Below are positions 1,263 to 55,697 of a stretch of DNA of 64,000 bases, in pieces. A program made the translations under genes and the position numbers. Position 1 is the first letter of the stretch. Each line of letters starts with the position of its first letter. This stretch comes from Cyanidioschyzon merolae (lineage: Eukaryota): the NCBI GenBank assembly GCA_000091205.1, contig AP006492.2, one strand, 5' to 3'. The notes under the pieces are model-generated. The model worked only from the letters and a program-made list of their open reading frames with translations. It had not been told where the DNA came from and made no database searches.

Positions 1263-1644
1263 CAAGCATGACTGGCGAATACGCGGAAGCGCAAGATATA
1301 ACGACGGCTGGCACACATCAGGTTCCGAACTTGCTGTGGGTATGACGTGTGTCGCTCCGAGGCCGACAACTACACGATGCGCTTCGACGACCTGAAGCGA
1401 CGCTCGCGCTCGATGCCACGTCTATGCTGTTTTGCATGGCGTCCTGTTTCTTACTTCTTTTATCTAAAAATAGGCCTTGACAATGGTTTCAGGCTGGGTT
1501 TTCGGCTCCGACGGGTTTCGCATCCGGTCCGTCCTCGTTCTCTGTGTCCAGTGCGTGCATCGCCTTGTTGCGGACTCGGCGCGGGCGCCTAGGTATGGTC
1601 GCGATACTCTGTGGCCGGTTTTTCCGGGGGATTCACTCATGCAA

Positions 1645-1662
1645 ACACACACACACACACAC
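1645..1662. repeat. (AC)9 dinucleotide microsatellite in IR arm A
   Basis: acacacacacacacacac read directly. Confidence 0.9.
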
Positions 1663-2571
1663 TGGGTGGACGGCGGTACTGAAACTCATCTTGTCTATGA
1701 ACGCATTTGCGATTCCTCAGGTACGTCCTCGTCTGCTTCTCAGTTGCGAGCATATCCACACGCCGCCGAGCGCCTTTCCGCACCCTCCCCTATAAACAAA
1801 ATCAGCGAAGCAGCAGCAAAGTCTCCTTGAGTGAGACGACCAACCTTATCTTCCCTCCTGTAATGAGCGTTCGCTGCCAAGTACGAAATCGATCGCGTGT
1901 CTTGTTCAACGCGCGACGGTCTCTTGTACATGTGCACGTTTTTTGCAGAGTCCATGCACGTCTCTTCATAGCCGTTTGCATCAGCGGTCCGGAAACGTCA
2001 TATCCTGCTGCTTCCTCGGTCGTATCTCTTAGAGAACGTACGCTGCGGAATGTTTCGACGAGGAGACGATCGTGCGGTTACACTTTGACATGTTGTGTTT
2101 TGGGCGCACAGCGTTCAGGATACGGTCGACGCGTACCATGGTGCAGTCACCTGCTCGCAGCAGAATCACTGACCCGCGCAACGAAACCCATTTTTCGCAA
2201 GCGAGCAGTAACGTCAGCAAGACTTTCCGTGAGCTCAGTCCATTCTACAGGACACTTGGCTTTTGTTGAATACCCGCAAGGAAAACGAAAAAAACAAAAA
2301 GACGTGCTGGCTAATGTGTGCCCGCATTGAAGACGCAGAGTTAACACCCAGATTGTTGTCGCGATAGTGCCTGCCCGAGACGAGCGCTCGTGCACTATGC
2401 GGCTGGAGCTGCGACTGTACCAAAGAGAGAGTGGAATTCGTTTACTCCTTCGACGATGGGTTTAAAGAGCACCGCTAGAAAACACAGTCGATCGGCCATG
2501 CAACACGATTCGCGCTGTGCTTGAACCAGACCAGGGTGCAAGGACGCTCAACCATTGGCAAACCGATCGTA

Positions 2572-3216
2572 TCACTGCGCGGTAACGGGCGGCGTCGGCA
2601 GCGGGCCATGCGGGCGGATCAACTTCACGTTACCGCCATCCTCAATCAGCTTTCCTTCCGCTCGTAGCTTTTCGTACTCTTCACGTGTGAAGCGCGTAAA
2701 GCCCCAGTATCGCGACACGTAAATACGCTGGCGTCCAGGGAACTTGTACTTGCTGCGTCTGAGTGCTTCCTTCGCTGCCTCTACGTGTTGCTCTTTCACG
2801 CGCACGCTCATGAGAATCTGTCCGATATCGACTCGAGCGACGGTGCCTTGAGGCTTCCCAAAAGCGCCCCGCATACCGGTTTGCAGGCGATCAGCGCCTG
2901 CACAGGACAACATTTTGTTGATGCGGATCACGTGGAACGGGTGAACACGCACCCGTAGGTGAAATCCATCTTTCCCAGCAGTCGCAGTCAAGTACTTGTT
3001 GGCAGCAACTCGGGCTGCTTCGAGTGCTTCACTTGACAGCTGCTCCCGCTCGTCGGAGACCAGGTTCACACAAAAGGGCAACTCGTCCGTAGCGGCCTTC
3101 TTTCGCCCCAAGTCGAAGATGCGGATCTTAGGGTCCGGCACACCTCGACAGTAGCGCGACTTGGGGTATGGCTTATTCTTGCAATAGCGGTAACAACGAG
3201 CAGGGCGCCGACCCAT
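2572..3216 (-). CDS. RPL10: 60S ribosomal protein L10 (uL16), 214 aa, single exon
   Basis: Translation [41 protein letters not shown]...[21 protein letters not shown] is the highly conserved eukaryotic L10/uL16 sequence. Full-length ORF. Confidence 0.93.
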
Positions 3217-16116: not shown

Positions 16117-16988
16117 CATGGAGTCGCCAACAGCACCGGTGTTTCCAGAAGAACCGCATCCTGTGATACGTGAAAGCCCATGTCGAAGAACGGTCGATCA
16201 AGTGTGTGCGGTATAAAGTAAGCTCTTGTTGGCTCGCGGCAGTGACCGCAAAGGTTCCCATCTCGCACGACGCTGAACGCGGTGAGGGTATTCAGCATGC
16301 GTATGCCTCTCAGCGGGCTGCATGCTGGAATATCGTTACCGGAAGAGCCGTTCTGTTTTTTATCGTTTTCCTTGCGGGTATTCAACAAAAGCCAAGTGTC
16401 CTGTAGAATGGACTGAGCTCACGGAAAGTCTTGCTGACGTTACTGCTCGCTTGCGAAAAATGGGTTTCGTTGCGCGGGTCAGTGATTCTGCTGCGAGCAG
16501 GTGACTGCACCATGGTACGCGTCGACCGTATCCTGAACGCTGTGCGCCCAAAACACAACATGTCAAAGTGTAACCGCACGATCGTCTCCTCGTCGAAACA
16601 TTCCGCAGCGTACGTTCTCTAAGAGATACGACCGAGGAAGCAGCAGGATATGACGTTTCCGGACCGCTGATGCAAACGGCTATGAAGAGACGTGCATGGA
16701 CTCTGCAAAAAACGTGCACATGTACAAGAGACCGTCGCGCGTTGAACAAGACACGCGATCGATTTCGTACTTGGCAGCGAACGCTCATTACGGGAGGGAA
16801 GATAAGGTTGGTCGTCTCACTCAAGGAGACTTTGCTGCTGCTTCGCTGATTTTGTTTATAGGGGAGGGTCCGGAAAGACGCTCGGCAGCGTGTGGATATG
16901 CTCGCAACTGAGAAGCAGACGAGGACGTACCTGAAGAATCGCAAATGCGTTCATAGACAAGTTGAGTTTCAGTACCGCCGTCCACCCA

Positions 16989-17661: not shown

Positions 17662-19891
17662 CTACAATGAGGTACAGCTGGTTCACGCGTACAAGTAGGC
17701 AGCGCTTCAGGAGCTTCGCGAGGACACTGGTGCATCGCGTTCCTGGTTTCTCGTCTGTAGCGAGGAGATGGACTCGAGTTTCACAGGGTCCACGGAGAGC
17801 GACGGCATACCCATCTGAACGCACGTTGTAAAACCTAGACCTGTTTCGAGATACCAGGCTCGCTCTTGCGACCGTTCAAGGCAAGCAGAGGGAGCGAGGT
17901 TGTGGAGAGCGTGGATTCCAGTTTGAAAGGCGTCACCGCGGTTGCCGTACCGCAAAACAGGACGACGGCGCGAGAGACATGAACGGAGAGCGGATGAAGC
18001 TGCTCAGCTCTTCCAGGGCGCGGTATTGTCGGGATCCGGGCACCAAAGACGCCAGCAGGCATACCGACAAGTCGAATGACAGCGTCTGGGCTCGTCTCGA
18101 TGCGCTATGCGCCGGTATCGAGCAGCGACGTGTGCTTTCTACGCTTCACGCGCAACGTATACGGGCCGCCACGAACGACTCACGCGGATACGCTTTGGCA
18201 AACGCACATGAGCCGGTGCTGGGGTCGCCGACGGCCTCACTTGCACCGATGCGAGAAGCGTGCACCATCCCTCTTCTCCGATGAGTCAGATACGCAAATC
18301 ACTGGTCAGCGAGTCGCTCGACGGTAGCCTACGCTGCTGGACGTACGCTCGTGCGGAAAGGCGCTGCCTCCGATCCTTGTATGGAGCCTCGACCGGGTCC
18401 AGGCATTGATCTGCTGCGATGCGCATCGATGGGCCTCCAAGACTACATACAGGTATCATGAGCGCAGGCGCACGCTGAGCCACATAGAGAACAAGAGCGT
18501 TGCACAGAGCGGGATGCACTGTATGGTGCTCGGTTCGCTGACGCAACCCCAGATACTGGGGCAATCACAAGGGCGTTGCTTGCGACGTTGTGATTCCGCC
18601 AGCAACAGTGTGGCGTACACGTACTTTCGGCGCCGAGACTCGAACGCCCCGCTCAACATATGGAGATATCTCGTGCATGCGGGGCGTCGAACGGCTTTGT
18701 ATCGAGCGAACGTTCGAGATCCTCGTTGAGGACTCGGTACATGCACTGTGCTGAAACGCTAGCGACTTTCGATGAAAAAAATCTGTGGTAAAGTCACAGG
18801 GCAGGGGATTCTCGCATGGACCACGGCACTGGTATGGGTACGGTTCAGCGATCCAGCAAGTCCAGCGTGCCCCATATACGCACAGCGAAAGCCTCTACTG
18901 CGTAAATGGTGAACGATCATTGTCGTCCACTATTCCATAGAACAGAGTATGCGGCAGCAACATCGATCCATGAAGTTGCCCGTTCTGCCCGGCGAATGCA
19001 TAGCATGTGCTCAGAGCAGAGCAGTCGACACACACCATCCTGTGATCTTGGAACGATGGGCGGCATTTTACGCTGCACAAACGCAACCGCGTCCTGGATA
19101 TCGCGCAATATCCCCCAACAACACCGAGACGAAATGCGAGTGCGTATGCTTAAAGCGGAAAGTCCGTTGCCAGCTGTAAACAGTGCTCTAGACGAGCGTC
19201 TAACCACTTGTTCTAGTCTAGTTGGATAGCAACGAGCCGCTTTTAGCGATTTTCGGCATATGCAGGGGCACTTTCGCGAGAGCGCAGCGGCAAGCCCCAA
19301 AAAGCGCCCATGCCTGTCCGAATGCGCTGGCAGCAGGCACCAAAGCGGGATTACGAGCGCTCGCCACACAACCCTGGTGCACGATGCGCGGCATCCGGAC
19401 TGGGGACGCTGCCTACCCGAGGCAGCGTCGGATGCGGATGTGGATTTCGCCCCTCTGCGAGTCACTGCTTCATCTGATGTGGCTGGTGCGCAGCACAATC
19501 GTCTAGGTCGCGCTTGTCTGCAAGCGTTTGCAAGCTGGATACAAGGTGTTCACCTTTTCGTGCAAAAAAATCTTGCTGTTTCTGGCGCTATCTTCCAGTA
19601 TAGATATCCGGCGAGGAAGGAGCTCTCGGTAGGATGTCATCTTGGACATCAGCTACACACCAGTGAGAGAGGGATGGCGGGCAATTTCGGCCAACAACGT
19701 CATCCATGTCGTCCTTGAGCGGACCCAGGAATCACGAACCGTCGGCACAGAGCAAATACGGCTGGCTATCAACAAGGCCTCTCAAAGCCTCCCCAGAGAC
19801 TCACGAGGAGCTCTGTGATCGGCCCGCAGTCGGGAGCATCCTTTGCATTGCCGCGATGTGGACGCGCTTGTCAACGGCAAGTCCCAAATTC

Positions 19892-24011: not shown

Positions 24012-24288
24012 AGACGGGCAGAACTCTGTTTGTCGTTTGCTTCCGCGTTTACGCGCACTAAAGGCTATAGTTGCACGAAGAGACTTGTTAGCGTCAACAG
24101 GGTTTGGAACGGGAACGACTATCACATAAACCACTTCGTTTCGTTTCACGCTACACCCCTGTCTTGTTACAGTTCATCAGGTTCATTCAGCCAACACAAG
24201 CGCAGACGCTAAAGTTTTGGTTTCTCTACAGCATGATCACCACCAGACTCTAAGGGTTTTTTCTGCAATTGATCTCATTTTTCCTCGA

Positions 24289-25044
24289 TCACGCCCTCGG
24301 CTTTAAAGGCACCGCTCTCTCATGCCCATCCAGCTCGGTCACCAGCAGTCGAAGTAAGTTGATGGCAGCGTTCAAGTCCCGATTTCGCAGCTTCCTGTCA
24401 TTTTCTAAGATTTCCAAGCACAGGCGAAAGAATAGATCTACGCCCCTCTCACTTTTTGCATCCTGTTGGTATACAGCCTGAGTGCATGCTTCGCATCGGT
24501 GATACATGGGTGTTGTCGGGTGTTCCGAAATGTCCATCACACCTCCGAGTGCCAACATGTGGCGGGTGAGCGCCTGCTTCACTTCTCGGTACACCGTCTT
24601 GATTGGTATACAAGGCTCTCCTATATGTAGTCCTATGTTTCCGCGCCCGGCGCCCTGCCCGACGATCATGGACTTCTTCTGGGAGATGCCCTCGGTGCGT
24701 ATGCTGTCCGCTGTACGCGCAAGTACACGCTGTTCCATTCGATGACAGTTTGGTGAAACGCGATGTTGTCCACGATGACACAAATACCGGAAGCCAATTC
24801 TCGGCATGAGAAGAACGCGAGAAATGCCGATTCGTTTAGGCTCGCTTCGTGCTAAAAGGCGACGCACGCTGCACTGGAAGCGAGAGCTATGATGACTCAA
24901 GTCCAAGCCAATACGCCTTTCCGATCCAAACGCAAGACACGGAGGCCTCTGGTACCATATCCCGTGAGAGGTTTCAAGCTGCTGTCGAATGCCTTTTCGC
25001 CGATGACACAAAGCGAGAGGCACTTGTCTTTCCAACGGAATCAA
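24289..25044 (-). pseudogene. TnpB/Fanzor-like C-terminal fragment (relic B): RuvC-II region, degenerate zinc finger and RuvC-III motif
   Basis: ...SMIVGQGAGRGNIGLHIG...VMDISEHPTTPMYHRCEACTQAVYQQDAKSERGVDLFFRLCLEILENDRKLRNRDLNAAINLLRL. The C..C zinc finger followed by RNRDLNAAINL is the canonical TnpB/Cas12/Fanzor RuvC-III signature. It is homologous to relics A (34121..36380) and C (55062..55697). No N-terminal half is found upstream. Confidence 0.55.
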
Positions 25045-31620: not shown

Positions 31621-32518
31621 TAAGCTTCGGATTCCATGATGTTCCGCGCGTCCTCCGTTGTTGCATGTGGCTGTGTACGTGTTTTGAAGGGCGTAAACTG
31701 CGGATTCCACGATGTTCCGCGCGTCTTCATCTCTTGACGGTTGACGATGCAGTCCCTGCTGCACCTGGTCGATGCGGTCGATCGAGGTTGCTCGCCTCCG
31801 GGTCCGATGTCCAGGAGAAGCTCCAGGGTTGCGTTCCCCACGCGCAGTTGTCGATAGCGCTCGGGGACACCAGCGCACCCGACTGGCAACATGGGGCCGT
31901 TTCTGGAACGTCTCTGCATCTGCATGCCACAAACAGATGGGCGAACCCAACCTCCAGACCTTTGACGTCGCGCTGAGCGCTCATCGAGGCGAGCGGCGAA
32001 CTCTCGAATGCGTTGATGGAAGGAAAACGCCAGTGCATCTATGTACAAACCCGGTAGCATTCTGCAAGGGCGTTTACCGGAGATGGGGTTTCCGGTGCAC
32101 CAGTGTCGCGCGTGCTGCCTCCCCGATGTTTGCGATCACGGGCGTGCTGCTGTATGGACCCGGTCGGTACGCAAGCACGATCCACAGCAGCTGGGCGATC
32201 AAGCCGCTTGCGGAACAGCGTCAGCACAGCGCGTATCTGCGCTTATTTCAGGGACTGCTCAAGAGTCTGGTCGACCGATGACGGTTTATCTTTTGCTTCC
32301 AAACTAGAGCAGATGCAACACAGAATGAAGGCACCTTCCCCTGTAATCGTCAACGGCTCTCACTGAAAACCCATGCAACCGAAACGTCCAATCATGCGGA
32401 TTTCGTAAAGTGTCAGCGTCTTGCACGATCTATGCATGATTCTGGGTCCCATGTGATCGACAGACGCTGTTGAGAGCAGGCTTGCGTCGCGTGTCCCCGT
32501 TGTAACGGAACGCCGGTG

Positions 32519-33193
32519 TCACTTGCGCCACTCCGTGGACTCATCCTTCATTGCAATAGAGGGCGGTTTACCGCGACCCAGTTTCATTTTTAACCATTGG
32601 ATAAGGCTCATAGCTTGTTCGGGTCGAATCATCTGCGTCGGATAGTCAAAATCTTTCGCAATAACGCGGTAGCCGTACTCCAGGTCATCAGCGGTATACT
32701 TTCGCAACGCGGAGTACTTGCGCAGGGCGGCGTGGATCATGCGACGCCCCTGCTCACTGAAAACAGAGCGTGCCACTCCCTTGTTCAAAGTGTCGCCATA
32801 GAATTTGCGTCCCCAGCTCGTGCGCATAGCGTTAACCAGCATCTTCGCGCGCCCGTCGCCTCTCATGGTGCCCAGTGGGTACCACAGCCCCGAGACGGGA
32901 CTACGCGCGAGAATTGCAAACACCGGTGTACCGTCTTCAGGAACCTCTAGTTCGCTAGGCGGTGCCAGTGGAGCATTAGGTTTACCTTTCTTGGCTTGGA
33001 GGCCAATAACGCCTCGATGCGGCAGTGCGGTCGAGCGATGCACCCCAGCGGCGCTTGCCGGTGCGCTCTGTACGCGTGACCTTGGACAGAAAACACCGTG
33101 GGTATGAGCAGTTGTTAGAGATACCGCTTGTCCATTTCTGTTTAGACTTGGTTTCCAACGTGTACCACTGAAACCAGCGCCTTGGATGAACAT
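32519..33193 (-). CDS. Hypothetical conserved-looking protein, 224 aa
   Basis: ORF with a non-repetitive C-terminal half (MLVNAMRTSWGRKFYGDTLNKGVARSVFSEQGRRMIHAALRKYSALRKYTADDLEYGYRVIAKDFDYPTQMIRPEQAMSLIQWLKMKLG). Family not recognised. Confidence 0.4.
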   Translation of the reverse strand: MFIQGAGFSGTRWKPSLNRNGQAVSLTTAHTHGVFCPRSRVQSAPASAAGVHRSTALPHRGVIGLQAKKGKPNAPLAPPSELEVPEDGTPVFAILARSPVSGLWYPLGTMRGDGRAKMLVNAMRTSWGRKFYGDTLNKGVARSVFSEQGRRMIHAALRKYSALRKYTADDLEYGYRVIAKDFDYPTQMIRPEQAMSLIQWLKMKLGRGKPPSIAMKDESTEWRK

Positions 33194-33699
33194 CTGTTAC
33201 CAGTTCACCTGTGCGGCACACGAAGAGTGATGGACAATGCCTGCAATGTTCGTTGTACGGAAGGCCATCGATGGGCAGCGAGTCGTGATCGCCGGCTCCG
33301 CTGCGTGCCCGCCGTGAGCACCCCCGCAGCAGCGCTCATGGTGCCGGTGCAGATGTATGCTTGAGTCAGAGCGACTTGGCCGTACCACTTTGGGCATCGG
33401 ATGGAGTAATACTACAGCTGGCATGGAATTAGGGCTAGGTATCATTCTGGGAACCTGAAATATAGGCAGATGGACGTACTGGCTACGGCCACGCGAAGCG
33501 ATATGCTTGGAGATAACTGCAATATGAGCAACGCCCAGTCGCAGCTTGAATGCCCCTAGTCCCAGAATAAGCTGCGTTGCGAACGAGTCGCGCAGGTCTC
33601 GCCGGAGCAACCGCCACTTTAGAGGCACACCGAGCGCAAACCTGGGAGACTCGTCCGGCTCGCGGGACCTGCCTCCTGTACGGTAAACTTTCGACAATA

Positions 33700-36600
33700 T
33701 GGAAACCTGTTCCCGCTCTAAAATTTTTTTTGTTGAGGGGAAAGAAATTATTTTCTAGTTGCTAGGTAGTGGTTGGTCTCTGTCCTTTATTACGATATGG
33801 CGCACTCGATACGCCCACCTCCATATTCGGCAGGAACGGAACACGTCGCGCATGTCGCCTTTGTGGGGAGACACGATCCTGGGCACTCGTTGACCTACTG
33901 CTCTAACGGGCAAGTTGTACTAACATGAAAGTCGCATCAAAGTATAGTCTTCCATTCCAGTTGTGTTTCAACCCTCAAGTAAGTGTATTCAAGTGATTTT
34001 TTGCAGTTTATAACGAAAGCGTTCACAGCGCGGTTTTCTCAAAAATAACAAAGTAGTGGAAGTGGAATTGGAGGATTCTCGAGGACCGATATCGCCGGCT
34101 GAAGGGAAAAACGAAAAGAATTGCCGAGCAGAGAGGACCAGGAGAAGACAAAGAAGCTGAGACAGGAGGCCAGACGTCAAAGGCTGCACGAGAGACGACA
34201 GTGCGACGAAATGGTGGTGCAAGCTCTTCTTCTACGCCGTACCAAGCATCCCTGTGGGCAAACGTTGCGAGAGGCCATCAGAAACCGTGTCGAGTCGTAC
34301 TCCGTGAGTATTATAAAGGCCTCGTCAGGGCTAATGCATTTGGTGAAGGAGATGTACCATCACATTACGGATATCACAACAGTCGAGGTTCCGGAAGAAT
34401 TTTTCATCGGGACCTTTATTCGCCACCTGATGCCTGGCACAGGGAAAATGTCGACGAAATGCGAGGGAGTGCACGCCCTCCACGAAAAATTTCCCCTTTA
34501 GAGCTCCAATGGTGCTCGATACAGGGATGAAGGAGATATTTACACCTACAGGGCGATGAAGTACTTCACGAATCTGAAGGACCACGTGAAAATGAACCGC
34601 GAACGTTTCATGAAACGCTCCGTATTTGCGCTCTACCCGGGCATCTCTCGCAAGCGGATACGTGCGATTATCCATGGCATCATGAACAATCGCCAGCATG
34701 GACAGGAGATCGAATTCGTTGACGAGAAGACATCACTCTGGTAAACGAATCAGGCTTATGTCATTCGTGCGGTTATACAAGAGCACCGTGCAATCTTGGG
34801 GCTGGCGAACCCAACAGAAAAGGTATTAGATTTGAAAAAAGATAAGGAAAGATGCTATCGCCTCGTCCTACGCTATTTCGTGTTCCTGGACCGAGAACTG
34901 GAACGCAAGGCGGAGATGACGCTGAGTGAGGAAAACAATGATGAATGGCAGAGACGGAAGGCTGTCCTGATGGGTAAGCGCTTCAATGGCGTTCCGTTGT
35001 GCAGCATCAAGTCGCACTATGTGATTATCGACTCCAGAGTCCTCTACGGCGTCATGGAGGAGACCTGTCCGCAGTTCGATGGAAGGAAGACGGAGTTCAC
35101 CGGTGAAAGCCGGGAGACGTACTGGAAGAATATCTTCTATTTCAAACGTCGCAAAGTGAGCAAGCAGAGGGTATTCACGGGCATAATCGAAACCGATGGA
35201 GTGTCCATGTGTGTACACTGTCGGCGGTTGAAGGCGGATCGTCCTATCGTGCCTTCGGCTTCGCCCGTGACGAAGCATGAAGAAAAGAAAGAGGCGGATC
35301 CTGCGACGCAGGAGGTGCATGAGAGTGACTTTGTCGTCGGCGTGGACCCCGGAAACACGATGAATATAGCCGTTGCAGCACCCAAGCGTGCGGAAGATGG
35401 CAGTGACGGTGACTTACGTCAGAAAGACATGCGTCTTTTCAAGCTCTCGAGAGCAAGATACCATCGAGAATCGGGAATCATGAATGCGAGGAAGAAAATC
35501 GAGACGTGGAATGCAGGAATCAAGGATCACCTGGAAGTTATGGGCGAGGTGGCGAGCCGCGGAGCAGACTTTAAAGCTTTTCGGGAGTTCGTGAAAATTC
35601 GTGTTGCCCATTGGGGTGCGCTGTGGAAAGAGTACGCCAAGCCCCGGTGGGCTCGTCTGCGTATGAACCTGTACTGTGGAAAACAGCGTGCATTCGCGAA
35701 TTTTTTCAATCAGTTGAGAGCCTTGAAGGAGGCCGAGAGTCAGAGGCTCGTAGTGGCATACGGAGCAGGGCGCAGGAAGACCCATAAAGGAACTACGCCA
35801 GCTCCAAGGACGAGAGCGTACAAGGAATGTGCACCGCGTTTCGACACGATACCTGTAGATGAGTTCCGAACGTCGTATACACATCATGAACTGGGGGTGT
35901 ACGCTTCAGAGAGTTGGGATGGAAAAGCGCCAGCAGAGCTCCGAGGATATGGCAAAAGTACGGAGCCCTGACGGAAGAGCAAATGGAAAGGAGGGCGAAC
36001 GTTCGTGGACTACTTGCATCAGTGAGTACAACCAGTGATGGCAAGAAACGTATGGAGTTCGTGAATAGAGACTTTCATGCAGCTATCAAAATAAGAAGAC
36101 GTGCGATGATGGAGAAAAGACCTGCAGAGTGGACGCGAGAGAACTTTGTTGGGCAACGTCTCAAGGTGGAACTATATGAGAAAAACTTGAGACCAGTAGA
36201 AGGTGGCCGGTCCAAAAAGACGGGGAAGCGTCTGCACATCAGTTGGAGACGTTTCGTCTGGGGCAAGTTTCTCGCCACAACTGTGCACTGCCGGCGACTG
36301 CTTTCGACTTTTAAAAGGCGTTCGCTAGCGGTGTCTTTCCAGCCGTCGTCCGGTGTACTCGCGAAAGGACCAATGTGATGCACAGAGGTAGATGCCGGAA
36401 ACAGAAGCGCGCCCTAGGTTTCGTGGATACAAGGCGCGGACCCACGTAGAGATATTCCCGAAAGTTTCCCAAGGGCTACGTTCGAGTCCAAAGTAAATAC
36501 TCTTCGGAACATCAGACGACGAGCTATGCCCTTTGTCATGGACGCAGCGGAGCGGAGGACATTGTCGCCGCCACCGCCACCACCACCAACGCACCCGCAG

Positions 36601-36900
36601 GTATCACAGGTCTTCGAAAAGGAAACCATCGAGGCCGTTGAGCCGCATACAAGCCGGATCACGTTTCCATGGATGGTTCGTACATGAAAGCACCTCATCA
36701 TGACCAAGCTCTGGTTAACTGTTGACTCGGCGCGTGCCAGGGCCTGATCAAATGATAGCAAACACGATCCCCGGAACGCTTCGCACCAGACTTTTTGTAC
36801 CCCGCATGATTGATGTATAGCATGCCCGCTTCCCATATCCCATGAAAGGAACCCGCTGTCCCGCTCCACGATGCATCGACAGAGCAGCGTTCTAGCAGAG
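33700..36900 (+). mobile_element. Lower-GC island carrying a decayed TnpB/Fanzor-like nuclease gene (candidate degenerate IS605/IS607-like or Fanzor-type element). Boundaries are approximate and no terminal repeats were identified.
   Basis: Composition drops from about 58-60% to about 45-52% GC, with A-rich runs (aaaattttttttgttgaggggaaagaaattattttc...). The island contains relic A below. Flanking genes (32519..33193 and PheRS at 36981) have normal composition. Confidence 0.45.
34121..36380 (+). pseudogene. TnpB/Fanzor-like RuvC nuclease, relic A (about 650 aa reconstructed), interrupted by two in-frame stops (TAG at 34499, TAA at 34742) and one frameshift between the RuvC-II and RuvC-III motifs
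   Basis: ORFs 34121..34501, 34556..34744 and 34796..35971 are all in the same frame. RuvC-I is [16 protein letters not shown] (Asp at 35345-47). RuvC-II is VVAYGAGRRK...IPVDEFRTSYTHHELG (Glu at 35861-63). RuvC-III is FVNRDFHAAIKI, in the -1 frame (Asp at 36069-71, ORF 35914..36378). The zinc-finger Cys residues are replaced (YTHHELG). It aligns with relics B and C. Confidence 0.6.
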
Positions 36901-36980
36901 CGCGCTCATAGGCGCATGGCGATCAGTACACGCGGGCTTCTGCGCTGGAGTTGTTGCTCGACGACGTACCGCAGCCGTCT

Positions 36981-38870
36981 ATGCCAACCGTAACAGTTAT
37001 ACGCGATCGATTCTTGAAGGCACTGGACTCTGATCTCGATGAAGCGGCGCTAGAGCAACTCTGCTTCTCGTATGGTCTAGAAGTGGAAACCGTGGAGGAC
37101 GAGCCGCTGAGCGACCTGCTCGGCGGCCAGCGCGCTCGCTCTGGTTGGTCAGACTCCATCGACGACGTCGAAAACTACGCAGGCCCTCTAGACCAGCACG
37201 TCGCTTGTTTAAAAATCGAGGTACCGGCAAACCGTCCAGACTTGTTGTGCTTCGAAGGCTTAGTGCAGGCGCTTCGCGTCTTCCGCGGCCTTGATAAACC
37301 AGCTGCGTTTCTGCTGCAGCGAACGGAGCCGCGGGAGCGGATCCTTGTGAGAACGAATGCACTGCGCCCATACATTGTGGCTGCAGTGCTGCGCGGTATA
37401 GACCTATCGGATCCGCTGCGGTATCAGTCGCTGATGGATCTACAGGAGCACCTTCATCAAAACCTAGGTCGTCGCCGTGCGCTCGTCGCGATCGGTACGC
37501 ACGACCTCGATACTGTCAAGGGGCCCTGCACCTACACGGTGAAAGACCCCAGAGAGATTCGCTTTCGACCATTGGCCGCTGAGCGCGAGCTGAGCGGTCT
37601 CGAAATCATAGAGCACTACCGACTCGACAAGCATCTGAAACGCTACCTGCCGCTCGTGGAAGGTGCACAGGCGTACCCGCTCCTTCATGATAGCGAGGAT
37701 CAGGTGCTATCGCTCCCGCCTATCATCAATGGTGATCGAACCAAAATCCGTCCTAGCACGCGAAATATGTTGATCGAATGCACTGGAACGGACCTAGTGA
37801 AGCTCACCACCGCGCTGACCGTCATCGTGGCCTCCTTCTCCCGGTATTGTCTGCCGGCGTTTTATGTGGAGCCAGTGACGATTCACTACGATCAACCGCT
37901 ACCGGAGGATAGGCTTGCAGCGATCAAAGCCAACGTGCTCGATTCGCAAACGCTATGCACACCGTGGGTCGAGGACGCGCAAATGCAGGTTTCTGCGCGT
38001 TACGTACAATCGCTACTGGGGGTCTCGCTCTCGGTATCGGAGCTGGAACGTCACCTTCAGCGCATGCAGTTGCACCTAGTGTCTGTCGTGGAAAACGAGG
38101 CATTCGATCAGGTCCTCAACGTTCAGGTACCAGTCTTCAGGAGCGACATCCTCCATCCGTGTGACGTTGCGGAGGACGTAGGCGTCAGTTATGGTTTCGA
38201 TCATGTTCCCGAGCGCACTGCTCCCTGTGTGCCAGTCGGGCAGTGGCGACCCTTGGAGCGCTTAACAGATCATCTTCGTCGCGAGCTCGCGCAACAGGGA
38301 TACTTCGAGGTTTTAACCTGGGTAACCGTGTCGCACGCTGAAAATACCGAAATGCTGCAACGCAGCGATGCACAGTCGCCAGCTGTGCGTCTACATAATC
38401 CCAAAACTCTAGAATTCGAGGAATGCCGGACCAGTCTTCTCGTGGGGCTGTTGAAGACACTTCGCGAGCATCGGGAAGCGCCGCTTCCTCTGCGCCTTTT
38501 CGAGACCGGTGATGTCGTCCTGCTTGATTCCAAAAGCGAGACCGGAGCCCGAAATGAGCGTCATCTTGCGGCAGTTTATAGTGACGTCCGCGCAGGTTTC
38601 GAGATCGTGAAGCATCTTCTCGATCGGATCATACTTGCTTTGAATTTGAAGTCCTTGGGATACAATGCAGGTTACCGACTGGACCCAAAAGCTTGTCACG
38701 ATGACCTCTTCTTTCCAGGTCGACGAGCGACGATTCTTGTGGAGCGGCCCAACGGGGCTCGGTTCGCGCTCGGGAGTATGGGCTGGCTCCACCCGCAGGT
38801 ACTGAAGAACTTTGGTCTTGCGGCGCCAGCGTCAGCGTTCGAGTTGAACGTGCAACCTTTTGCTGCGTAG
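36981..38870 (+). CDS. FARSB: Phenylalanyl-tRNA synthetase beta subunit (cytosolic/archaeal-eukaryotic type), about 629 aa
   Basis: MPTVTVIRDRFLKALD... is the typical PheRS-beta N-terminus (MPTVSV.RD.L). It has B3/B4 and B5 domain-like segments. The C-terminal catalytic-like fold ...LNPKTLEFEECRTSLLVGLLKTLREHREAPLPLRLFETGDVVL...FFPGRRATI is the conserved eukaryotic FARSB core. Confidence 0.88.
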   Translation: MPTVTVIRDRFLKALDSDLDEAALEQLCFSYGLEVETVEDEPLSDLLGGQRARSGWSDSIDDVENYAGPLDQHVACLKIEVPANRPDLLCFEGLVQALRVFRGLDKPAAFLLQRTEPRERILVRTNALRPYIVAAVLRGIDLSDPLRYQSLMDLQEHLHQNLGRRRALVAIGTHDLDTVKGPCTYTVKDPREIRFRPLAAERELSGLEIIEHYRLDKHLKRYLPLVEGAQAYPLLHDSEDQVLSLPPIINGDRTKIRPSTRNMLIECTGTDLVKLTTALTVIVASFSRYCLPAFYVEPVTIHYDQPLPEDRLAAIKANVLDSQTLCTPWVEDAQMQVSARYVQSLLGVSLSVSELERHLQRMQLHLVSVVENEAFDQVLNVQVPVFRSDILHPCDVAEDVGVSYGFDHVPERTAPCVPVGQWRPLERLTDHLRRELAQQGYFEVLTWVTVSHAENTEMLQRSDAQSPAVRLHNPKTLEFEECRTSLLVGLLKTLREHREAPLPLRLFETGDVVLLDSKSETGARNERHLAAVYSDVRAGFEIVKHLLDRIILALNLKSLGYNAGYRLDPKACHDDLFFPGRRATILVERPNGARFALGSMGWLHPQVLKNFGLAAPASAFELNVQPFAA

Positions 38871-46418: not shown

Positions 46419-47612
46419 CTACGTTGCGGGCAGCGCAAGGGTGCGCGATGCTGCGAGCCACGGCTCGAATGCAAACCCCAACATATCGAAAAGAGGAGGC
46501 AGCAACGCCAGACTGAAAAAGAAGAAGATGCTGTAAATCGCACCGCTCGCCGCAAAACGTGCTGCGGCACAATAAGACACCCTGCTCTTCGCCTCGTGCC
46601 GGGCGCGCTTCGCGCCCGGCACATCGGGTGCGTGGCGGTCATCCGCTGATGGGCTTCTCTTAGAGCGCCACCTTGAGCCCGGCTCGCTCGTCGAGCCTTT
46701 CGCTATCGACTCCGATTCCGTACATGGAGACGAAAACAGATACCCTTTCGCGTCCTCTTTCTCACTCGGTGGCGGTGTACCAACTTGTGACGCTCCCGTC
46801 CAGCCCAGTTGACCGTTCGAGATAGTCAAGAACGAGGCGAGTTCTCGCAGCACCGACTTGGTGACACAAGCGAAACCGACAATCATTCGCTGACCATTTG
46901 TCGGAGGTTTTCCGTTTGTCTCGCAGCTAGCTTGCGACGCGGCCTCATTCGGGTTGTCTGGCGAGCTCCTCGCTTCCACAGTGCGAGTGCTTTGCGCGCA
47001 CACGAGCGCTTCCAGTTCGCGAACGCGTTCCCTCAGCCGTTGATTCTCGACCGCGAGATCGCTGAGTGCCCGAGATAACAACAGGTAGTCTCCAATGCCC
47101 ATGTCGCGAGAACTCCACGCTGTGTCCTCTAAACAAAATGATGCAGCACGAGGCGACTGTGGCAGCGACTCCGCGGCGACAGTGCACCCACCAAAGTCGG
47201 TGGACGAGTCCGTCTCGAACCGCCCTGAAGTAGGTATGATACCCGAACGTACCTCCCATTCACCATTTTGTTCGTCTTGAGAACAAGATTCTAAGTTAAG
47301 AAAGTTGTCCCAGTTAGATAGGTTTGTTGAGGTCGTGTGTTCCACTGCCATGCAGTCCGTTTCGAGGCGAACGCAAAACACGAATCGGATACGGGATCGC
47401 GTATGCGTGTGCGCCTTCGAGAATCGCGGAGGCGCTTCCAACCGATCGGACACGTGTCCCGCGCGTTGATCCACAGGCATGCGTGCCTGGCGGATGAAAT
47501 CCCTGATTTTGTTGGATAGGGCCCAGACAATGTGCCTGGATTCTAGAGTGCGCGTTGCAACTGGGCACTCGGGAAAGCATCCATCATACTTCGTGATACG
47601 TCCAAGTTCCAA
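46419..47612 (-). CDS. Hypothetical coiled-coil protein, 397 aa
   Basis: Long ORF with a Cys/His-containing N-terminus (ITKYDGCFPECPVATRTLESRHIVWA) and a heptad-like segment (LSDLAVENQRLRERVRELEALV). No family assigned. Confidence 0.35.
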   Translation of the reverse strand: MELGRITKYDGCFPECPVATRTLESRHIVWALSNKIRDFIRQARMPVDQRAGHVSDRLEAPPRFSKAHTHTRSRIRFVFCVRLETDCMAVEHTTSTNLSNWDNFLNLESCSQDEQNGEWEVRSGIIPTSGRFETDSSTDFGGCTVAAESLPQSPRAASFCLEDTAWSSRDMGIGDYLLLSRALSDLAVENQRLRERVRELEALVCAQSTRTVEARSSPDNPNEAASQASCETNGKPPTNGQRMIVGFACVTKSVLRELASFLTISNGQLGWTGASQVGTPPPSEKEDAKGYLFSSPCTESESIAKGSTSEPGSRWRSKRSPSADDRHAPDVPGAKRARHEAKSRVSYCAAARFAASGAIYSIFFFFSLALLPPLFDMLGFAFEPWLAASRTLALPAT

Positions 47613-50480
47613 GACCCATTCATTGTTTCGAATAGACTGGTCGTTCCATACGATCCATGATGCTCCGAGCCTGTCGTACGCATCCGCAAGAGCGTGAAGA
47701 GAGCCAGTGCGGACACCGGACGCGGGTAGACCACTTTTTTATCATTCCGCTGAGGGCGGCTGCTCGAGGCGTGGTCCACCTGACGCGGGATCCGGTTTCG
47801 TTGTCAGTGCACGCTCTGGCAGGCTGCATATGGGACCCTATTGAAGCGGCACGGCGCTTTGGAGAAATCTAACTGCTAGGAAGAATTCTGGCCATAGAGT
47901 CTCACATTCGCCATCGGATACGGATTGCGTTGCGGTATAGGAGCGCGGGTCTTGGCTCGGTACCCATCAGCGAGGAGGTAGATGAAACGCTGGGCCGGCA
48001 CGCCCATCCGTATTGCGCAGCCTTCAGCCAAGAGGCTAGAATGTGAGATTGGTCGGCGCTCGCGGGGTTGTGGCTCAGACAGAGGAACACCAGGTGCCAG
48101 AACTGCAATCAATGCGAATGATCGTCCTCGATCGCCTATAGTGACGTTTCGAAGATGTGCTCCCTCAGGGAGCCTGCAGTGATCCTCTAGCCAAAGCGGA
48201 CTCTGTAGAAACGACTTTGTGTGTGTGTGTGTGTGAGTCACAGGAGTTGCGTACACGAAGCCAAGGTGGTGTGATTCCCTGTGAGCCGCTTATGTCTTGG
48301 TACGGCATGCAGCCGGGGCCAGCGACAACGGACTGACACGCGCGTTGGCGAGCCAGTTGGTGACTCGGGCAAGCACTATGCACACCAGCGCCTCCTATCA
48401 AGAGCAGCGTGCATCTACTATATCCACGTTTGAATAAAACAGAACGAGTCCATCTGGCTACTTCGAGCGTACTCGATAGAGTATGTGTCATAATCATAGT
48501 CTTCATCACCGGCGTTCGTCAGCCTCTGCTTCAACTGTTTTGTTTCCCTCTGTCTTGTCTCCGGAGAGAAGTACGCCCGTCTTTCCTGCGGCTTCGGATC
48601 CGTTGTCAACAGTTAAACGATGTTCACCTCAGCGTTCTGGTCCCGATTTTGCTGCTTGAGGCTGGTGTTCACGCGTTTTATGCACAGAAAAAGTGCTCGA
48701 TCGGCGCATCGCTCGCAATGTTCGACTTCTTCGAATTAATCCATTGTACGTTCTTCACAGCAGCGATGCTCATTTGTGGTCATGTGTCCCTCGGAGATCC
48801 AAAACACCTTCGCTTTCTTCGAGGGCCACTTCGAGACTCGTGAACGCTTCCTTTCCTGCTCGATATATGCGGTGGACGGGGACAGGAGGCTTCATTGGAC
48901 CCCGCTCCCTGGTTCCCGTGTCAGGGGCCATACTCTAAGATAACGGGCTACTTGTGAACGATTTCTTCGCCCAGTACTCTGCTCTAGGAAGCGGAAGCGC
49001 ACGCGATTCCATTCGATAGATGATCTGTGGAACACGATGTCGTTCGTGCTGAAACTAGAACGGGGAGGAAAACCCGAACTGGAGATCGTGCCGGGAATTT
49101 TCGATCCGCGTACGCTCGCTTCGTGCAAAACGTTGACGTATTCTCCACTGGGACCGATCGCTCCGATGATACAAGTCCGGGGGCCACGACCCTGCTCTAT
49201 GCAAACACCCGAGACAGCAGCCTCGGTGAGTATCACTAGTGAGGCGAATCATGCTGTTGTAGATCTTTGTTTCGACGACGAGAACGAAAAGAGGAGGATT
49301 TGAATTTTGAGCAGAATCCCTCATTTGGCGTGAGAGGTTCCGTGAACCTTCGGTATGTGCTTTCAAACAAGTCGTTACGGGACGACGTCGAGTTTTCCGT
49401 CCTCTTCAATCCGATGGGATGAATCGCTGCGCTCGTGAGTAGCCTTGAAACCGAGAGATTGATACGTTAAGGGATTCGTGATTCTGGCATGCTACGCGTA
49501 ATGAAAGAAGAAGAGTAGAGGCTGAAACGTATGAATATGATCCTGGTATCGTTTACTCTATGAGCCATTTTCGATTGCGTCGCAAATCGTCTTGATCCCT
49601 GTATCGTAAAGAATTCCAGGGGGAAAATATCGAAGGCGCAACACCGGACTGGTCATCGGGACTCCTATATCTATGTATGCATCCGTCCGCCGTTTTTGCC
49701 GCATTCCGAATGTGGAGGCAGCACATCGAAAACAAGTTCGAAAAAAATTGGTACGCAGGAACAGCGCAAGCAGTTCCGTCTTCTATTTGAACCTGTGACG
49801 GATTTAGATGCCAATACCGATACGAAATGCAAGCACGTCCGTTTTCTACAACCAACCGCCTTTCCATACCTCTATACGTATCTAAGGTGCCACACTAGAT
49901 TCAAAATATATCTCATAGACCTCTACACACTGCGATACGTTCAAGAGCTTAGGGTGCTCGTACAGGCGCATGCCTACGCATATATGTACGTATAGGCACT
50001 CTCGTTGCCAGTGACAAGTACGGACCAGTGGACGCGTTTTCTCGAGTTGAGGCCGACGCCTCCACTTTGCCGTCTGTTGTACACAACGTATGCAACGGAA
50101 CTTTGGTCGGGAAAACGTGGATCGCCGCCAGTTCTAGCCTATTAGAGACCTCGTGCCATCAGCACGATCCACGTAGGGTATGGATACCGACTCACAGACA
50201 CTTCGCTGGGTTGCCCGACTCGCCGACTGGTATCAGCTTCAGCTTCTCCTGGTACATCTCGACCTCGAGAGGTTCCCCCACAGAGTTCGCTCGCGTTAGC
50301 TCCGTGGGTCTCATCTTCAGGACTGCACATCTCCTCGTATTGATGGCGGCGTTAAAGTTCACGAACGCCATGCGTTTCTTGCCTCTGCGCGAACCCATCA
50401 ATGCAAGGATTCCTAGAATTCGCGCCCTTCGTACCACTACAGCCTCATCAACGCCCCGCCGTGCGAACACGCTCTCTCGC

Positions 50481-54514: not shown

Positions 54515-55061
54515 AGGCGCTCACGATAACACACGAACTGCTTCTTGGTCACGCTCGCTAATAAGCGGACTGTTGGCAGAAGCGTTATGCGCTTCGAGGC
54601 CTCACTACCGCCTTAGAGGCGGGCGCATCTGCCCCGTAGGTCTGGCTGCCTACCTCGACACGCCCCCGGTGGCTGCAGTTGCGCGGTAGCAGCAGTCGCC
54701 CCGTAGAGGGTAGCGTCAATGGCTTTCGCCTGAAACAGGACATTTATGGATGTATGTTGCATAGGTGGATGCGGCCCAGGCGTCTGCCTCATTCCATTCC
54801 TGAACATTCTGGGAGAATACAGACATATGTCACGATGCCGTAGCGAATCTGGACTCGATGGTACCCGATGTTCTTCGCTGAGCACAGGATCGTTCCTGTG
54901 AGCGTGCAGGCATCGCTGCTTTCGTAATGGTTGTACGCATCCGGCACCTTGTTCATCGTGCCGTACTAGACCTTCAGGTTCCACCAGTGACCATGTGTAA
55001 TTCGCTTCGGAGATCATGGTTGGTTTGTATGAACTTGCAGGTGCCGAGTGTACACCCGGCG

Positions 55062-55697
55062 TCAGACGAATATCGAACAGGTCCACGAACAAGGACGTAT
55101 GCGCTGAAGTTTGGGTTTCTTGGGACTGTCGTCAGCACCAGCCTTTGTGCGCTTTTTTTTTGCGACAGCTGCCTTCCCTCGTACGTCCGGCTTTAAGTAC
55201 GCAGGTTTCTCCGTACCCACCAGCGCCGTTTCCGAAAGTCGAAGGATGTCGATGGCAGCGCTCGGATCCCGAATTCGACACTTCCGGCTGTTTTCGACGT
55301 ATTTCATGCACATACAAAAGTCGTGAACTGTGATTCGCATGCCATTTTCATCTTTGTCGTATATAGCCTTGCTGTGCCCGTCGCAGCTGTGACCATTAAG
55401 GAAGAACAGGTGTTCCCACATATCCATGAATTCTGCATCTCGCGCCATGCCGCGATGCGTGGACCCTGCCTTTACCCCTCGGTTCACGCCCTCGACGGGC
55501 AGAGAAGGCTCGTGGCAAAAGCGGTCGTGCGTGTACGCGCCCGATATTGTGCATGACGATCGGGGGCATCTTCGACGTGATCCCCCGGGCAAGCACTGTG
55601 TTCGCTGCGCGCTCAAGCGCATGCTGCTGCATTTCATACAAGATTTGTGGAATGCAGCACTGCCCATGATGAAACAAGCGCCGAAAGGAAAATCCAC
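55062..55697 (-). pseudogene. TnpB/Fanzor-like C-terminal fragment (relic C): RuvC-II block, degenerate zinc finger, RuvC-III-like motif
   Basis: ...AEFMDMWEHLFFLNGHSCDGHSKAIYDKDENGMRITVHDFCMCMKYVENSRKCRIRDPSAAIDILRL aligns position by position with relic B (VMDISEHPTTPMYHRCEACTQAVYQQDAKSERG...RNRDLNAAINLLRL) and with relic A. Confidence 0.5.

Follow-up and report, generated by a model that had tools for sequence, protein, structure and literature searches.

In the window analysed here, a 64,000-nucleotide stretch of Cyanidioschyzon merolae DNA (contig AP006492.2), an HHL1-like gene and a PheRS-beta gene are transcribed divergently, and the spacer between them holds a mobile element. The element, a 5'-truncated copy of the CMe-1A Fanzor1 transposon, occupies 33299-36322 on the + strand. 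Host intergenic DNA flanks it on both sides, at 33194-33298, from the HHL1-like start codon (33193, − strand) to the truncated left edge, and at 36323-36980, upstream of PheRS-beta; the former has neither repeat coverage nor a left-end profile match, and the latter no similarity to 81 related loci. CMe-1A was described as a Fanzor1 element of C. merolae with about 150 copies, lacking terminal inverted repeats (TIRs) and target-site duplications (TSDs) (Bao & Jurka 2013, PMC3627910); its consensus of 3169 bp contains one 734-aa ORF, and the copies are about 80% identical to it (PMC3627910).

The CMe-1A copy and its empty site

A blastn comparison aligned consensus positions 152-3169 with window positions 33299-36320 (+) as a single HSP of 3031 columns at 83.2% identity, and pairwise alignment of the window copy with the 3169-bp consensus gave 84.0% identity with 22 gaps. 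The whole copy corresponds to consensus positions 152-3171 and is without the first 151 bp of CMe-1A. The possibility that the match is a database artefact was considered and is implausible at 84% identity across 3 kb. In more than 70 related copies, similarity to the window stops right after GGCGTT at 36322, which gives a sharp right end, and in more than 40 copies this end lies two nucleotides (TT) past the published consensus. Repeat coverage from the 81 related loci is likewise confined to 33299-36322. On the left, a profile built for the left end (nhmmer) matched 33303-33791 with E=1.5e-98, the first matched profile position being 156; a MAFFT alignment had suggested that the left end reaches into the HHL1-like gene, an extension that was rejected as the profile match starts only at 33303. 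The non-coding 5' leader of the element spans 33299-34055 (+, consensus 152-905), and its first part, 33299-33787 (+), corresponds to the 635-bp module that CMe-1A has in common with TE-N2_CMe, as shown by the published description (PMC3627910) and by the left-end profile.

Judged by these alignments, the segment 33299-36322 is a single CMe-1A copy that is old and inactive. It resembles the consensus in its single Fanzor1 ORF, its 5' module, its lack of TIRs and TSDs and its level of divergence, and differs from it in being 5' truncated and a pseudogene. The family was already catalogued in 2013, and the window involves no new kind of system. Related sequences are frequent in metagenomes, where we found 369 stretches related to the element, and proteins homologous to the window's Fanzor-like protein fall into 63 clusters. 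An earlier, sequence-only reading of this DNA had placed the limits of the insert at 33700-36950; the right end lies about 630 bases before that, and the leftmost 400 bp had been missed, while its location of the right end between the RuvC-III motif and PheRS was correct. It had also named 24030-24290 and 54900-55062 as 3' flanks of other copies for comparison, a use for which neither is suited: the remnant at 24292-25044 (−) comes from another, only distantly related Fanzor-like family, and 54910-55054 holds a fragment of the left end of the element.

The suggested comparison of orthologous loci did reveal an empty site. In Cyanidiococcus yangmingshanensis (L083) 871 bp separate the HHL1-like gene from the PheRS gene and the element is absent, and the same adjacency without the element is found in a second related cyanidiophyte (L084). 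Subtracting the 3024-bp element from the 3787-bp gap between the two genes in the window leaves 763 bp. On this comparison the insertion is specific to the window's lineage and the orthologous site is empty in relatives, which, together with the multi-copy nature of the family, bears out the suggestion of a transpositional insert. The intergenic DNA of the window gave no alignment with that of Cyanidiococcus or of the second cyanidiophyte, and the breakpoints are therefore not placed to the base from the empty sites.

A decayed Fanzor1 gene

The Fanzor-like gene with RuvC motifs that had been recognised earlier is real and extends from 34056 to 36261 (+), as established by codon-by-codon alignment to the 734-aa consensus ORF, three-frame translation and tblastn, in which the CMe-1 protein matched the window at 74% identity over residues 19-734. 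Its ATG is deleted at 34056, and single-nucleotide indels lie at 34106, 34225/34228, 35893 and 35953. Two substitutions relative to the consensus (TAC>TAG and AGC>TAA) have produced the nonsense codons TAG at 34499-34501 and TAA at 34742-34744, and the family stop codon TAG has become TGG at 36259-36261. Taken together, these lesions make the window copy a pseudogene. The same pseudogene is present in a strain 0.8% diverged from the window, and nearly all sampled CMe-1A copies are dead. A cluster of SNPs at 35004-35148 had no donor copy among 80 loci. Read from its codons, the CMe-1 protein was under selection in the past, since in 49 non-redundant copies codon position 3 shows lower conservation than positions 1 and 2.

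A profile of the family matched SpuFz1 of Spizellomyces punctatus (PDB 8GKH; Saito et al. 2023) over about 350 residues with E=1.9e-11, and RuvC-I, the alternative glutamate and RuvC-III were all aligned. By this homology of the RuvC nuclease core, with the glutamate rearranged in the same manner, CMe-1A is a Fanzor1 family. The family alignment shows no variation at the catalytic D, E and D residues or in the DPG and NRDxNAAxNI motifs, and the three catalytic residues are kept in the window copy. The RuvC-I motif VDPG (35342-35353, +; Asp codon 35345-35347) aligns to the DPN of SpuFz1, and the RuvC-III motif, NRDFHA in the window and NRDFNA in the consensus, occupies 36064-36081 (+; Asp codon 36070-36072). 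The RuvC-II region (35756-35869, +) is rearranged: the sequence AYGAG has a glycine in place of the canonical TnpB glutamate, and about 36 residues past it an invariant alternative glutamate within VDEFRTS (GAG, 35861-35863) aligns with the E of SpuFz1 LDEYKTS. In Fanzor1 proteins the canonical RuvC-II glutamate is replaced by glycine or proline, with an alternative conserved glutamate about 45 residues downstream (PMC10530073).

The zinc ribbon sets the clade apart. SpuFz1 keeps a CxxC zinc ribbon (CPRC...CTNPNC), whereas the CMe-1 clade, with THHE...C...C, has lost the cysteines, a family-wide condition that is not peculiar to the window copy. The Pfam model OrfB_Zn_ribbon had no match on proteins P0001, P0048 or P0056, and Pfam-A, in a set searched without PF26935 (DUF8286, the precomputed label), had none to the ORF pieces or to intact homologues. 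RNA-guided, TAM-dependent DNA cleavage by CMe-1 is a possible activity, and the T/C-rich run to the left of the element is the sole lead for a candidate TAM.

Some Tc1/mariner-type elements, among them PUl-1 to PUl-4 of Pythium (Bao & Jurka 2013), carry Fanzor1 genes. In metagenomes the closest intact relatives of CMe-1 are P0048 (40% identity) and P0055 (31-34%), each with a DDE_3 transposase gene immediately upstream, and one of these two elements has candidate 30-nt inverted repeats. CMe-1A differs from Tc1/mariner (DDE_3) Fanzor1 elements in having no transposase, TIRs or TA duplication, and does not belong among them; tblastn found no similarity to DDE_3 or any other transposase inside 33299-36322 or in the 905-bp leader of CMe-1A. 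Decayed pairs of DDE_3 and Fanzor-like genes also occur within the window.

A conserved 3' terminal module

The last ~95 nt of the element form a conserved terminal module (36225-36322, +), a candidate omega-RNA scaffold that we delimited by a covariance model (R1), pair counts and folds. It comprises a helix over the last codons (36225-36235/36245-36255), a short GC hairpin (36262-36267/36271-36276), the linker ACAACUGUGCAC (36277-36288), which corresponds to the family-conserved linker ACUACUGUACAC, and a degenerate terminal hairpin (approximately 36293-36322) ending in GGCGTT, all on the + strand. Model R1 scored 36225-36322 at 76.9 bits (E=5e-18) and produced 79 matches across loci; it had no second match within the window and returned noise only (E≥0.58) when run on the empty-site loci and on those of distant homologues. 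The R1 structure has 81.6% of cells paired, versus 36-51% in slid controls, and 15 pairs have changes on both sides, versus 8.7±1.8 in shuffles, with 0 of 500 shuffles reaching the observed value, counts that overstate significance because the copies are related and that come from a covariance alignment fitted to the proposed structure. Compensatory changes affect 11 of the 12 pairs of the terminal hairpin, and the changes in helices H0/H1 and H2 are mostly one-sided, H0 overlapping coding sequence. The structure was seen only after the copies had been folded singly and then realigned with the covariance model; RNAalifold, applied to an unfitted MAFFT alignment of the last 300 nt, gave a near-empty consensus of -2.6 kcal/mol.

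Folding also distinguishes the two strands, with sense versus antisense energies of -44 vs -32.8, -34.9 vs -27.1 and -30.9 vs -23 kcal/mol. The fold of the 3' module at locus L009 has a z-score of -4.9, and that of the window copy's terminal hairpin, which has decayed, a z-score of -0.68. Three of the 12 stem pairs of the terminal hairpin are G·U in most copies; for the two outermost pairs, G·U was counted in 41/50 and 30/51 copies. Over the final 250 nt of the ORF, third-codon positions show no extra conservation, and any scaffold is therefore short. A scan of 33000-37100 against Rfam (by E-value) had no match. The conserved hairpins, the compensatory changes and the G·U pairs, which can form on the sense strand alone, suggest that the last ~95 nt of the family are an omega-RNA scaffold, a reading that is plausible but unproven; its support comes from other copies, the window gene being dead and its hairpin decayed.

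The guide RNAs of Fanzors derive from the 3' non-coding region abutting the right end (PMC10432273, PMC10530073), and that of SpuFz1 consists of a 75-nt scaffold and a 14-15-nt guide (PMC10432273). If intact CMe-1A members work in the same way, the nuclease mRNA or a separate transcript would extend across the element's final 95 nt, and the sense strand of this segment would fold into a helix spanning the stop codon, a short GC hairpin, the conserved ACUACUGUACAC linker and a terminal hairpin of 10-12 bp that closes exactly at the element's end. As in SpuFz1 and other Fanzors, the folded segment would then serve as omega-RNA scaffold, with the following 15-20 nt of flank as guide, which in the window would put the guide in host DNA at 36323-36340 (+), by comparison with the 14-15-nt guide of SpuFz1 (PMC10432273). 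The nuclease would then cut element-free alleles, leading to retention or copying of the element. The two systems are not documented alike: the SpuFz1 omega-RNA is known from small-RNA-seq and cryo-EM and that of CMe-1A is predicted only, and SpuFz1 elements have inverted repeats, which CMe-1A has not. We advance only tentatively the full proposal that the module is the omega-RNA of a zinc-ribbon-less Fanzor1 clade of thermoacidophilic red algae, with a guide read from the flank, a T/C-rich TAM and RNA-guided homing without a transposase of its own. Against an omega-RNA stand the loss of the zinc-ribbon cysteines found in characterised Fanzors, the dead state of nearly all sampled copies and the composition of the right flank, where about 9 nt past 36322 are GT-rich and A-poor, a bias not predicted by a pure guide model, in flanks that are otherwise unrelated between copies. 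Moreover, a signal for a single-strand transposase would also look like a terminal hairpin.

The last point leads to the main alternative, in which the terminal hairpin is a top-strand DNA transposition signal recognised by a transposase supplied in trans, similar to the hairpins at the 3' end of Helitron/Helitron2 elements and at the right end of IS200/IS605, and not a guide-RNA scaffold. Alignments of the left and right flanks of many copies contained no TIRs and no recognisable TSD, in keeping with the earlier failure to find any by eye. Nearly all copies have a T/C-rich run before their left end, T directly follows the right end in 27 of 48 flanks, and T often stands on both sides of the insertion. 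The absence of TIRs and TSDs, a strand-specific hairpin flush with the terminus, the T/C-rich run before the element and mostly T after it are the general signature of single-strand (HUH) transposons (PMC10288648), and the Fanzor1 genes of Chlamydomonas ride in Helitrons (PMC3627910, PMC10530073). Like CMe-1A, IS200/IS605 elements with TnpB and omega-RNA and the Helitron-borne CRe-1 to CRe-3 of Chlamydomonas are without TIRs and TSDs, have a hairpin in terminal or subterminal position and a gene for an RNA-guided nuclease whose 3' end abuts the right end, and insert beside a short biased motif. A further point in favour is a consensus-level inverted match of 10 nt that links the 5' end (GACAAAACGT) to a subterminal site on the 3' side, reached by 9 of 2000 shuffles (p ~0.005); individual copies do not maintain this match, which counts against the DNA signal and for which reason we rejected it as a terminal inverted repeat and retain it as a lead only.

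In other respects the likeness to these transposons is incomplete. CMe-1A shows neither a Y1 nor a Rep/Hel transposase, and none was found in the window or in the loci, where the only transposase remnants are DDE_3. Helitrons have TC...CTRR ends, Helitron2 elements asymmetric terminal inverted repeats (ATIRs), and both a 3' hairpin, insertion at AT or TT and a Rep/Hel partner in the genome; of these features CMe-1A has the 3' hairpin and lacks the TC...CTRR ends, and its ATIR is a candidate at consensus level only. A hairpin was identified at the right end of CMe-1A and none at the left. The prevalence of G·U among three of the 12 stem pairs also speaks against a signal read in DNA. Such pairs are tolerated in RNA and destabilising in DNA. 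For these reasons we consider a purely DNA-level role for the hairpin rather unlikely. The two readings are nevertheless compatible, because both functions overlap in IS200/IS605.

The sequence-only reading had allotted 36000-36950 to a possible omega-RNA scaffold. Of that interval only the ~95 nt at 36225-36322 are upheld, by the evidence from other copies, and 36323-36950 is unique host DNA. The guide RNA of certain Fanzors sits far downstream of the ORF, about 200 nt in ApmFNuc (PMC10530073), which might favour a scaffold or an element end further right, within 36323-36950. Such a position is very improbable, given that 0 of 81 loci share window sequence beyond 36322-36334, that the published consensus ends at the same place, and that this DNA has a host-like GC content of 56.2%, no Rfam match and no fold signal (z=+0.25 for 36323-36420).

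Taken as a whole, the locus is with high probability explained by a dead CMe-1A copy of intrinsically low GC whose 3' module would be an omega-RNA scaffold in intact members. Both the lower GC and the disrupted Fanzor ORF are accounted for by a dead copy of a catalogued transposon. To the published description our analysis adds the exact right end of the family, the empty-site evidence and, from the comparison of copies, evidence for a short structured module, specific to one strand, at the 3' end. Should this module be a guide RNA, it would provide a testable omega-RNA for a Fanzor clade without zinc ribbon from a hot, acid-growing organism, and would bear on the question, raised by Bao & Jurka (2013), of how a Fanzor-only 'non-autonomous' element reached about 150 copies.

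Base composition and the remaining alternatives

The GC dip at the locus is real and modest. The element has 51.2% GC, the span 33700-36950 has 51.4% and the whole window 55.7%; among 3-kb windows (mean 55.7%, sd 2.0) the element falls at the 3.5th percentile, the lowest value being 48.5% at 49-52 kb. The lower-GC island reported earlier thus exists as a dip, and its supposed 45-52% throughout does not. Values of 45-50% are limited to 33750-34950 and 35850-36300, with 52-55% at 34950-35850 and a host-like 56.2% at 36323-36980. The most AT-rich part of the element is 33700-34210 (46.8% GC), and its leftmost 400 bp (33299-33700) have 57%. The neighbours, put at 58-60% GC, measured 55.1% (HHL1-like gene) and 56.2% (PheRS). 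The A-rich character of the + strand was confirmed: between 34.8 and 36.3 kb it is rich in purines and A, with a GC skew of +0.18 to +0.27 and an AT skew of up to +0.29.

A segment 4.5 GC points under the window mean could be viewed as a recently acquired foreign island, the more so as Fanzors occur in giant viruses too (PMC3627910), and horizontal acquisition had been offered as one origin of the insert. The proposed check of GC and codon usage separates the two properties, in that the GC profile is not flat and the codon usage is not foreign: GC3 of the Fanzor ORF is 0.60, versus 0.55-0.66 in host genes, and the deficit resides in the leader and in the first two codon positions. The low GC is therefore due to an ORF rich in Lys, Glu and Arg and to an AT-rich leader, and the host-like GC3 points to a resident transposon in place of a recent import. 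The family is old, with about 150 or more diverged copies in the genome, some 80% identical to the consensus (PMC3627910); the window copy is itself 16% diverged and heavily decayed, and is shared as the same pseudogene with the 0.8%-diverged strain. A recent foreign origin has, in our estimation, very little to recommend it.

Least credible of all is a functional window gene whose stops and frameshifts are bypassed through introns or recoding, for while some Fanzor genes do have introns (PMC10530073) and the D/E/D residues are kept, the consensus ORF is continuous, the defects are point substitutions and single-base indels, both the start codon and the left end have been lost, and the neighbouring genes are uninterrupted. 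The 629-aa PheRS ORF is one of these, in agreement with an intron-poor genome. An exact-sequence look-up of the window PheRS protein returned no record; alignment gave 75% identity with the Cyanidiococcus protein and 99% with those on JGI metagenome contigs.

Identity, limits and state of the element

Alignment to the published 3169-bp consensus (supplement of PMC3627910) identifies the segment as a copy of the catalogued Fanzor1 transposon CMe-1A: consensus positions 152–3169 match window positions 33299–36320 (+) in one HSP at 83.2% identity, and a pairwise alignment (84.0%) extends to 36322 with the addition of two terminal T's that lie beyond the published consensus and are found in most copies. 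The transposon family was known before, and the window copy is a pseudogene. In Cyanidioschyzon merolae, CMe-1A has been described in about 150 copies, each ~80% identical to a ~3 kb consensus, without terminal inverted repeats (TIRs), with target-site duplications (TSDs) and class left unassigned by Bao and Jurka, and with a 5' stretch of 635 bp common to the element TE-N2_CMe (PMC3627910).

The limits of the copy were defined by comparison with its relatives. In a blastn search of 32500–38000 against 81 related loci, coverage extended only from 33299 to 36322–36334, and when the right ends were aligned, more than 40 independent copies finished in ...GAACGGCGTT or ...GAAAGGCGTT, followed by complete divergence. 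The right limit of 36950 proposed for the island and element in the sequence-only reading is therefore too distant: from 36323 up to the start of the PheRS gene (36981) the sequence is unique, with a host-like GC content of 56.2%. The insert itself was borne out by comparison with relatives. In Cyanidiococcus (GCA_026122185.1, L083) the order of a 1445-aa gene, RPS4, the HHL1-like gene (-) and PheRS (+) is conserved with the window, the HHL1-like to PheRS distance being 871 bp, and a second relative (L084) is arranged alike; neither locus carries the element between these genes, and searches of both loci with the two end profiles (left and right) and the Fanzor protein gave no match. The corresponding gap in the window is 3787 bp, or 763 bp after subtraction of the 3024-bp element. 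PheRS-beta identity is 75% to Cyanidiococcus yangmingshanensis, 43–47% to other red algae and 99% to one JGI contig, which assigns the host to the cyanidiophycean red algae; because intergenic DNA cannot be aligned at this divergence, the breakpoints were set by the family ends and not by the empty sites. The segment is shown to be an inactive transposon copy with Fanzor1 as its only gene, and relatives lack an insert at this site.

Compared with the consensus, the window copy lacks the first 151 bp (an absence also seen with the left-end profile) and the ATG, contains 1-nt indels at 34106, 34225/34228, 35893 and 35953 and two nonsense substitutions (TAC>TAG and AGC>TAA), and has its TAG stop codon changed to TGG (36259–36261). 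Three-frame translation reveals a single long reading frame broken by TAG at 34499, TAA at 34742 and frame changes near 35890–35955, in which the motifs VDPG, VDEFRTS and NRDFHAAIKI can be read; the codons for the catalytic residues (D, E and D) are intact. The same pseudogene is present in a strain contig, L001, that is 0.8% diverged over 16 kb.

Some 20 of the 125 differences in this ungapped, 99.2% identical L001 alignment cluster at window 35004–35148 (L001 10209–10353), ~145 bp inside the Fanzor pseudogene, and 21 fall within 34990–35160. Either gene conversion, with a different CMe-1A copy as donor, or chimerism in the metagenome assembly could account for this; a search of 80 loci turned up no donor. 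The 5' module of ~650 bp (consensus 1–650) is present in only about 8–17 of 49 non-redundant copies, most of which start aligning at about consensus 650–700, a pattern that suggests possible subfamilies with differing 5' regions or frequent 5' truncation.

The Fanzor1 protein family

Homologues retrieved from the database form 63 protein clusters, which come almost entirely from JGI metagenomes and bear the precomputed label DUF8286. A profile of ten of these clusters matches the structurally solved Spizellomyces punctatus Fanzor1, SpuFz1 (8GKH), with E=1.9e-11 over ~350 residues, the alignment spanning RuvC-I, the Glu of DEF/DEY and RuvC-III. Gly (in AYGAG) takes the place of the canonical RuvC-II Glu, and an invariant Glu is found ~36 residues further on; such a 'rearranged' catalytic site is known from Fanzors (PMC10530073). 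Whereas SpuFz1 and TnpB contain CxxC...CxxC zinc-ribbon cysteines between RuvC-II and RuvC-III, the whole clade of CMe-1, the CMe-1A protein, is devoid of them (family alignment columns 700–790; window about 35870–36060), yet the family bears signs of past purifying selection. Conservation at codon position 3 is below that at positions 1 and 2 in 49 non-redundant copies, which indicates that the CMe-1 protein was under selection during diversification of the family, the same argument as that of Bao and Jurka (PMC3627910). Almost all sampled CMe-1A copies are now dead. Just upstream of RuvC-I, a ~72-bp unit encoding a peptide that ends in (D/E)NDFVV is repeated in tandem 2–5 times in several copies (proteins P0001, P0007 and P0012; L002 11226–11440, compared with window 35266–35344) and occurs once in both the window copy and the consensus.

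A conserved module at the 3' end

The sole remaining, mildly interesting point is a possible guide-RNA role of the conserved 3' module. Characterised Fanzors take their guide RNA from non-coding sequence on the 3' side, next to the right end of the element, and that of SpuFz1 consists of a 75-nt scaffold and a 14–15-nt guide out of the flank (PMC10432273, PMC10530073). The '600 bp' region put forward for a scaffold in the sequence-only reading shrinks to the portion left of 36322, since the right part is unique; there is no fold signal past the element end (z=+0.25, 36323–36420) and no Rfam match in 36323–36980.

The stop codon of the consensus ORF is 61 nt upstream of the element end. When 34 copies were folded singly over their terminal 92 nt, nearly all formed the same terminal hairpin, in the versions GGCGUCGUUCGA-CUU-UCGAACGGCGUU and AACGUUUUUC-UUUU-GAAAGGCGUU. 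Searching with a covariance model built on the terminal 95 nt gave 79 hits among the loci and a single one in the window (36225–36322, 76.9 bits), with none in the empty-site loci or the loci of distant homologues. In 56 distinct sequences, drawn from mutually related copies in an alignment fitted to the model, 81.6% of cells are paired, compared with 36–51% with slid partners, and 15 pairs are changed on both sides, compared with 8.7±1.8 in shuffles; compensatory changes occur at 11 of the 12 terminal-hairpin pairs. RNAalifold support on an unfitted alignment is weak, a different helix, further upstream across the final codons, has about equal support to the stop-codon hairpin, and third-codon positions at the ORF end show no extra conservation. 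The version of the module in the window has a fold no more stable than that of shuffled sequences (z=-0.68) and does not form the canonical terminal hairpin.

By analogy with the characterised systems, the leading candidate for the omega-RNA scaffold of the family is the 95-nt module, and the putative guide would be located from 36323 to about 36340. A live rival is that the hairpin is a DNA-level signal for single-strand transposition, a role that may coexist with one in RNA. The two outermost hairpin pairs are G·U in 41 of 50 and 30 of 51 copies, corresponding to C·A mismatches on the opposite strand, and in well-kept copies the sense fold is better than the antisense (L009, -44 kcal/mol, z=-4.9, versus -32.8). 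The ends, the junction biases and a 10-nt inverted match were counted as bearing on the choice between RNA and DNA roles. CMe-1A has neither TIRs nor TSDs. Nearly every copy (L017, L024, L035, L038, L048, L050, L052, L058, L059, L072 and others) has a T/C-rich run of 6–8 nt in front of the published 5' end, and at the right junctions of about 48 loci the 9 nt that follow the 3' end are rich in G and T and almost A-free (e.g., TGTTGTTGG and GTTGGTGCG); these biases could stem from target-site preference, mark a TAM or be terminal nucleotides of the element that went unrecognised. The 10-nt inverted match links the 5' end to a subterminal site on the 3' side; it is present at the consensus level (p about 0.005) and lost in single copies. 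Neither Rep/Hel nor Y1 genes were observed in the window or the loci.

Base composition and other transposon remnants

The GC dip noted in the sequence-only reading is real, with misplaced edges and a modest depth: the sliding profile gives 45–51% at 33750–34950, 51–55% at 34950–35850 and ~49% at 35850–36300, returning to 53–56% from 36300 rightwards. GC content is 55.7% for the whole window, 51.4% for 33700–36950 and 51.2% for the CMe-1A copy (33299–36322), the last being at the 3.5th percentile of same-length window segments (mean 55.7%, sd 2.0); the part at 49–52 kb is lower still, down to 48.5%. The flanking genes, for which 58–60% had been claimed, measure 55–56%. Horizontal acquisition, the other proposal, fares poorly: GC3 of the Fanzor frame (0.60 in the window copy, 0.615 in the consensus) is host-like (host ORFs 0.55–0.66), and the deficit lies in GC1 (0.55 versus 0.59–0.68 in the host), GC2 and an AT-rich leader (46.8% GC), which argues against a recent foreign origin. 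The GC pattern fits a transposon long resident in the host, with a Lys/Glu/Arg-rich protein. The whole Fanzor ORF is purine-rich on the + strand.

The nearest intact CMe-1 relatives (proteins P0048 and P0055; 31–40% identity), on contigs of 44–48% GC (L087–L093), are located directly downstream of DDE_3 (Tc1/mariner-type) transposase genes; in L088, a candidate 30-nt inverted repeat (736–765/4347–4376) encloses the transposase and Fanzor-like genes. The window contains decayed remnants of a different, distant Fanzor1-like family at 16370–16755(+) with 17832–18726(+), 2281–1772(-) with 824–3(-), and 25044–24292(-) (profile E-values across the group, 8e-12 to 7e-5); the supposed other copy at 24 kb belongs to this distant family and not to CMe-1A. 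Two of these remnants come shortly after, on the downstream side, a DDE_3 remnant that points the same way, and the pairs look like dead transposase-plus-Fanzor elements. The best DDE_3 remnant, 51860–51178(-) (tblastn E=1.5e-9), is inside the lowest-GC part of the window (49–52 kb, 45–52% GC). Fragments of CMe-1A itself comprise a left end at 47531–47806(+) (consensus 27–293, nhmmer E=1.5e-34), which may be a TE-N2_CMe-like element, an ORF 3' end at 50436–50259(-) (consensus 2833–3019) and a weak left-end match at 54910–55054(+) (E=2.6e-9).
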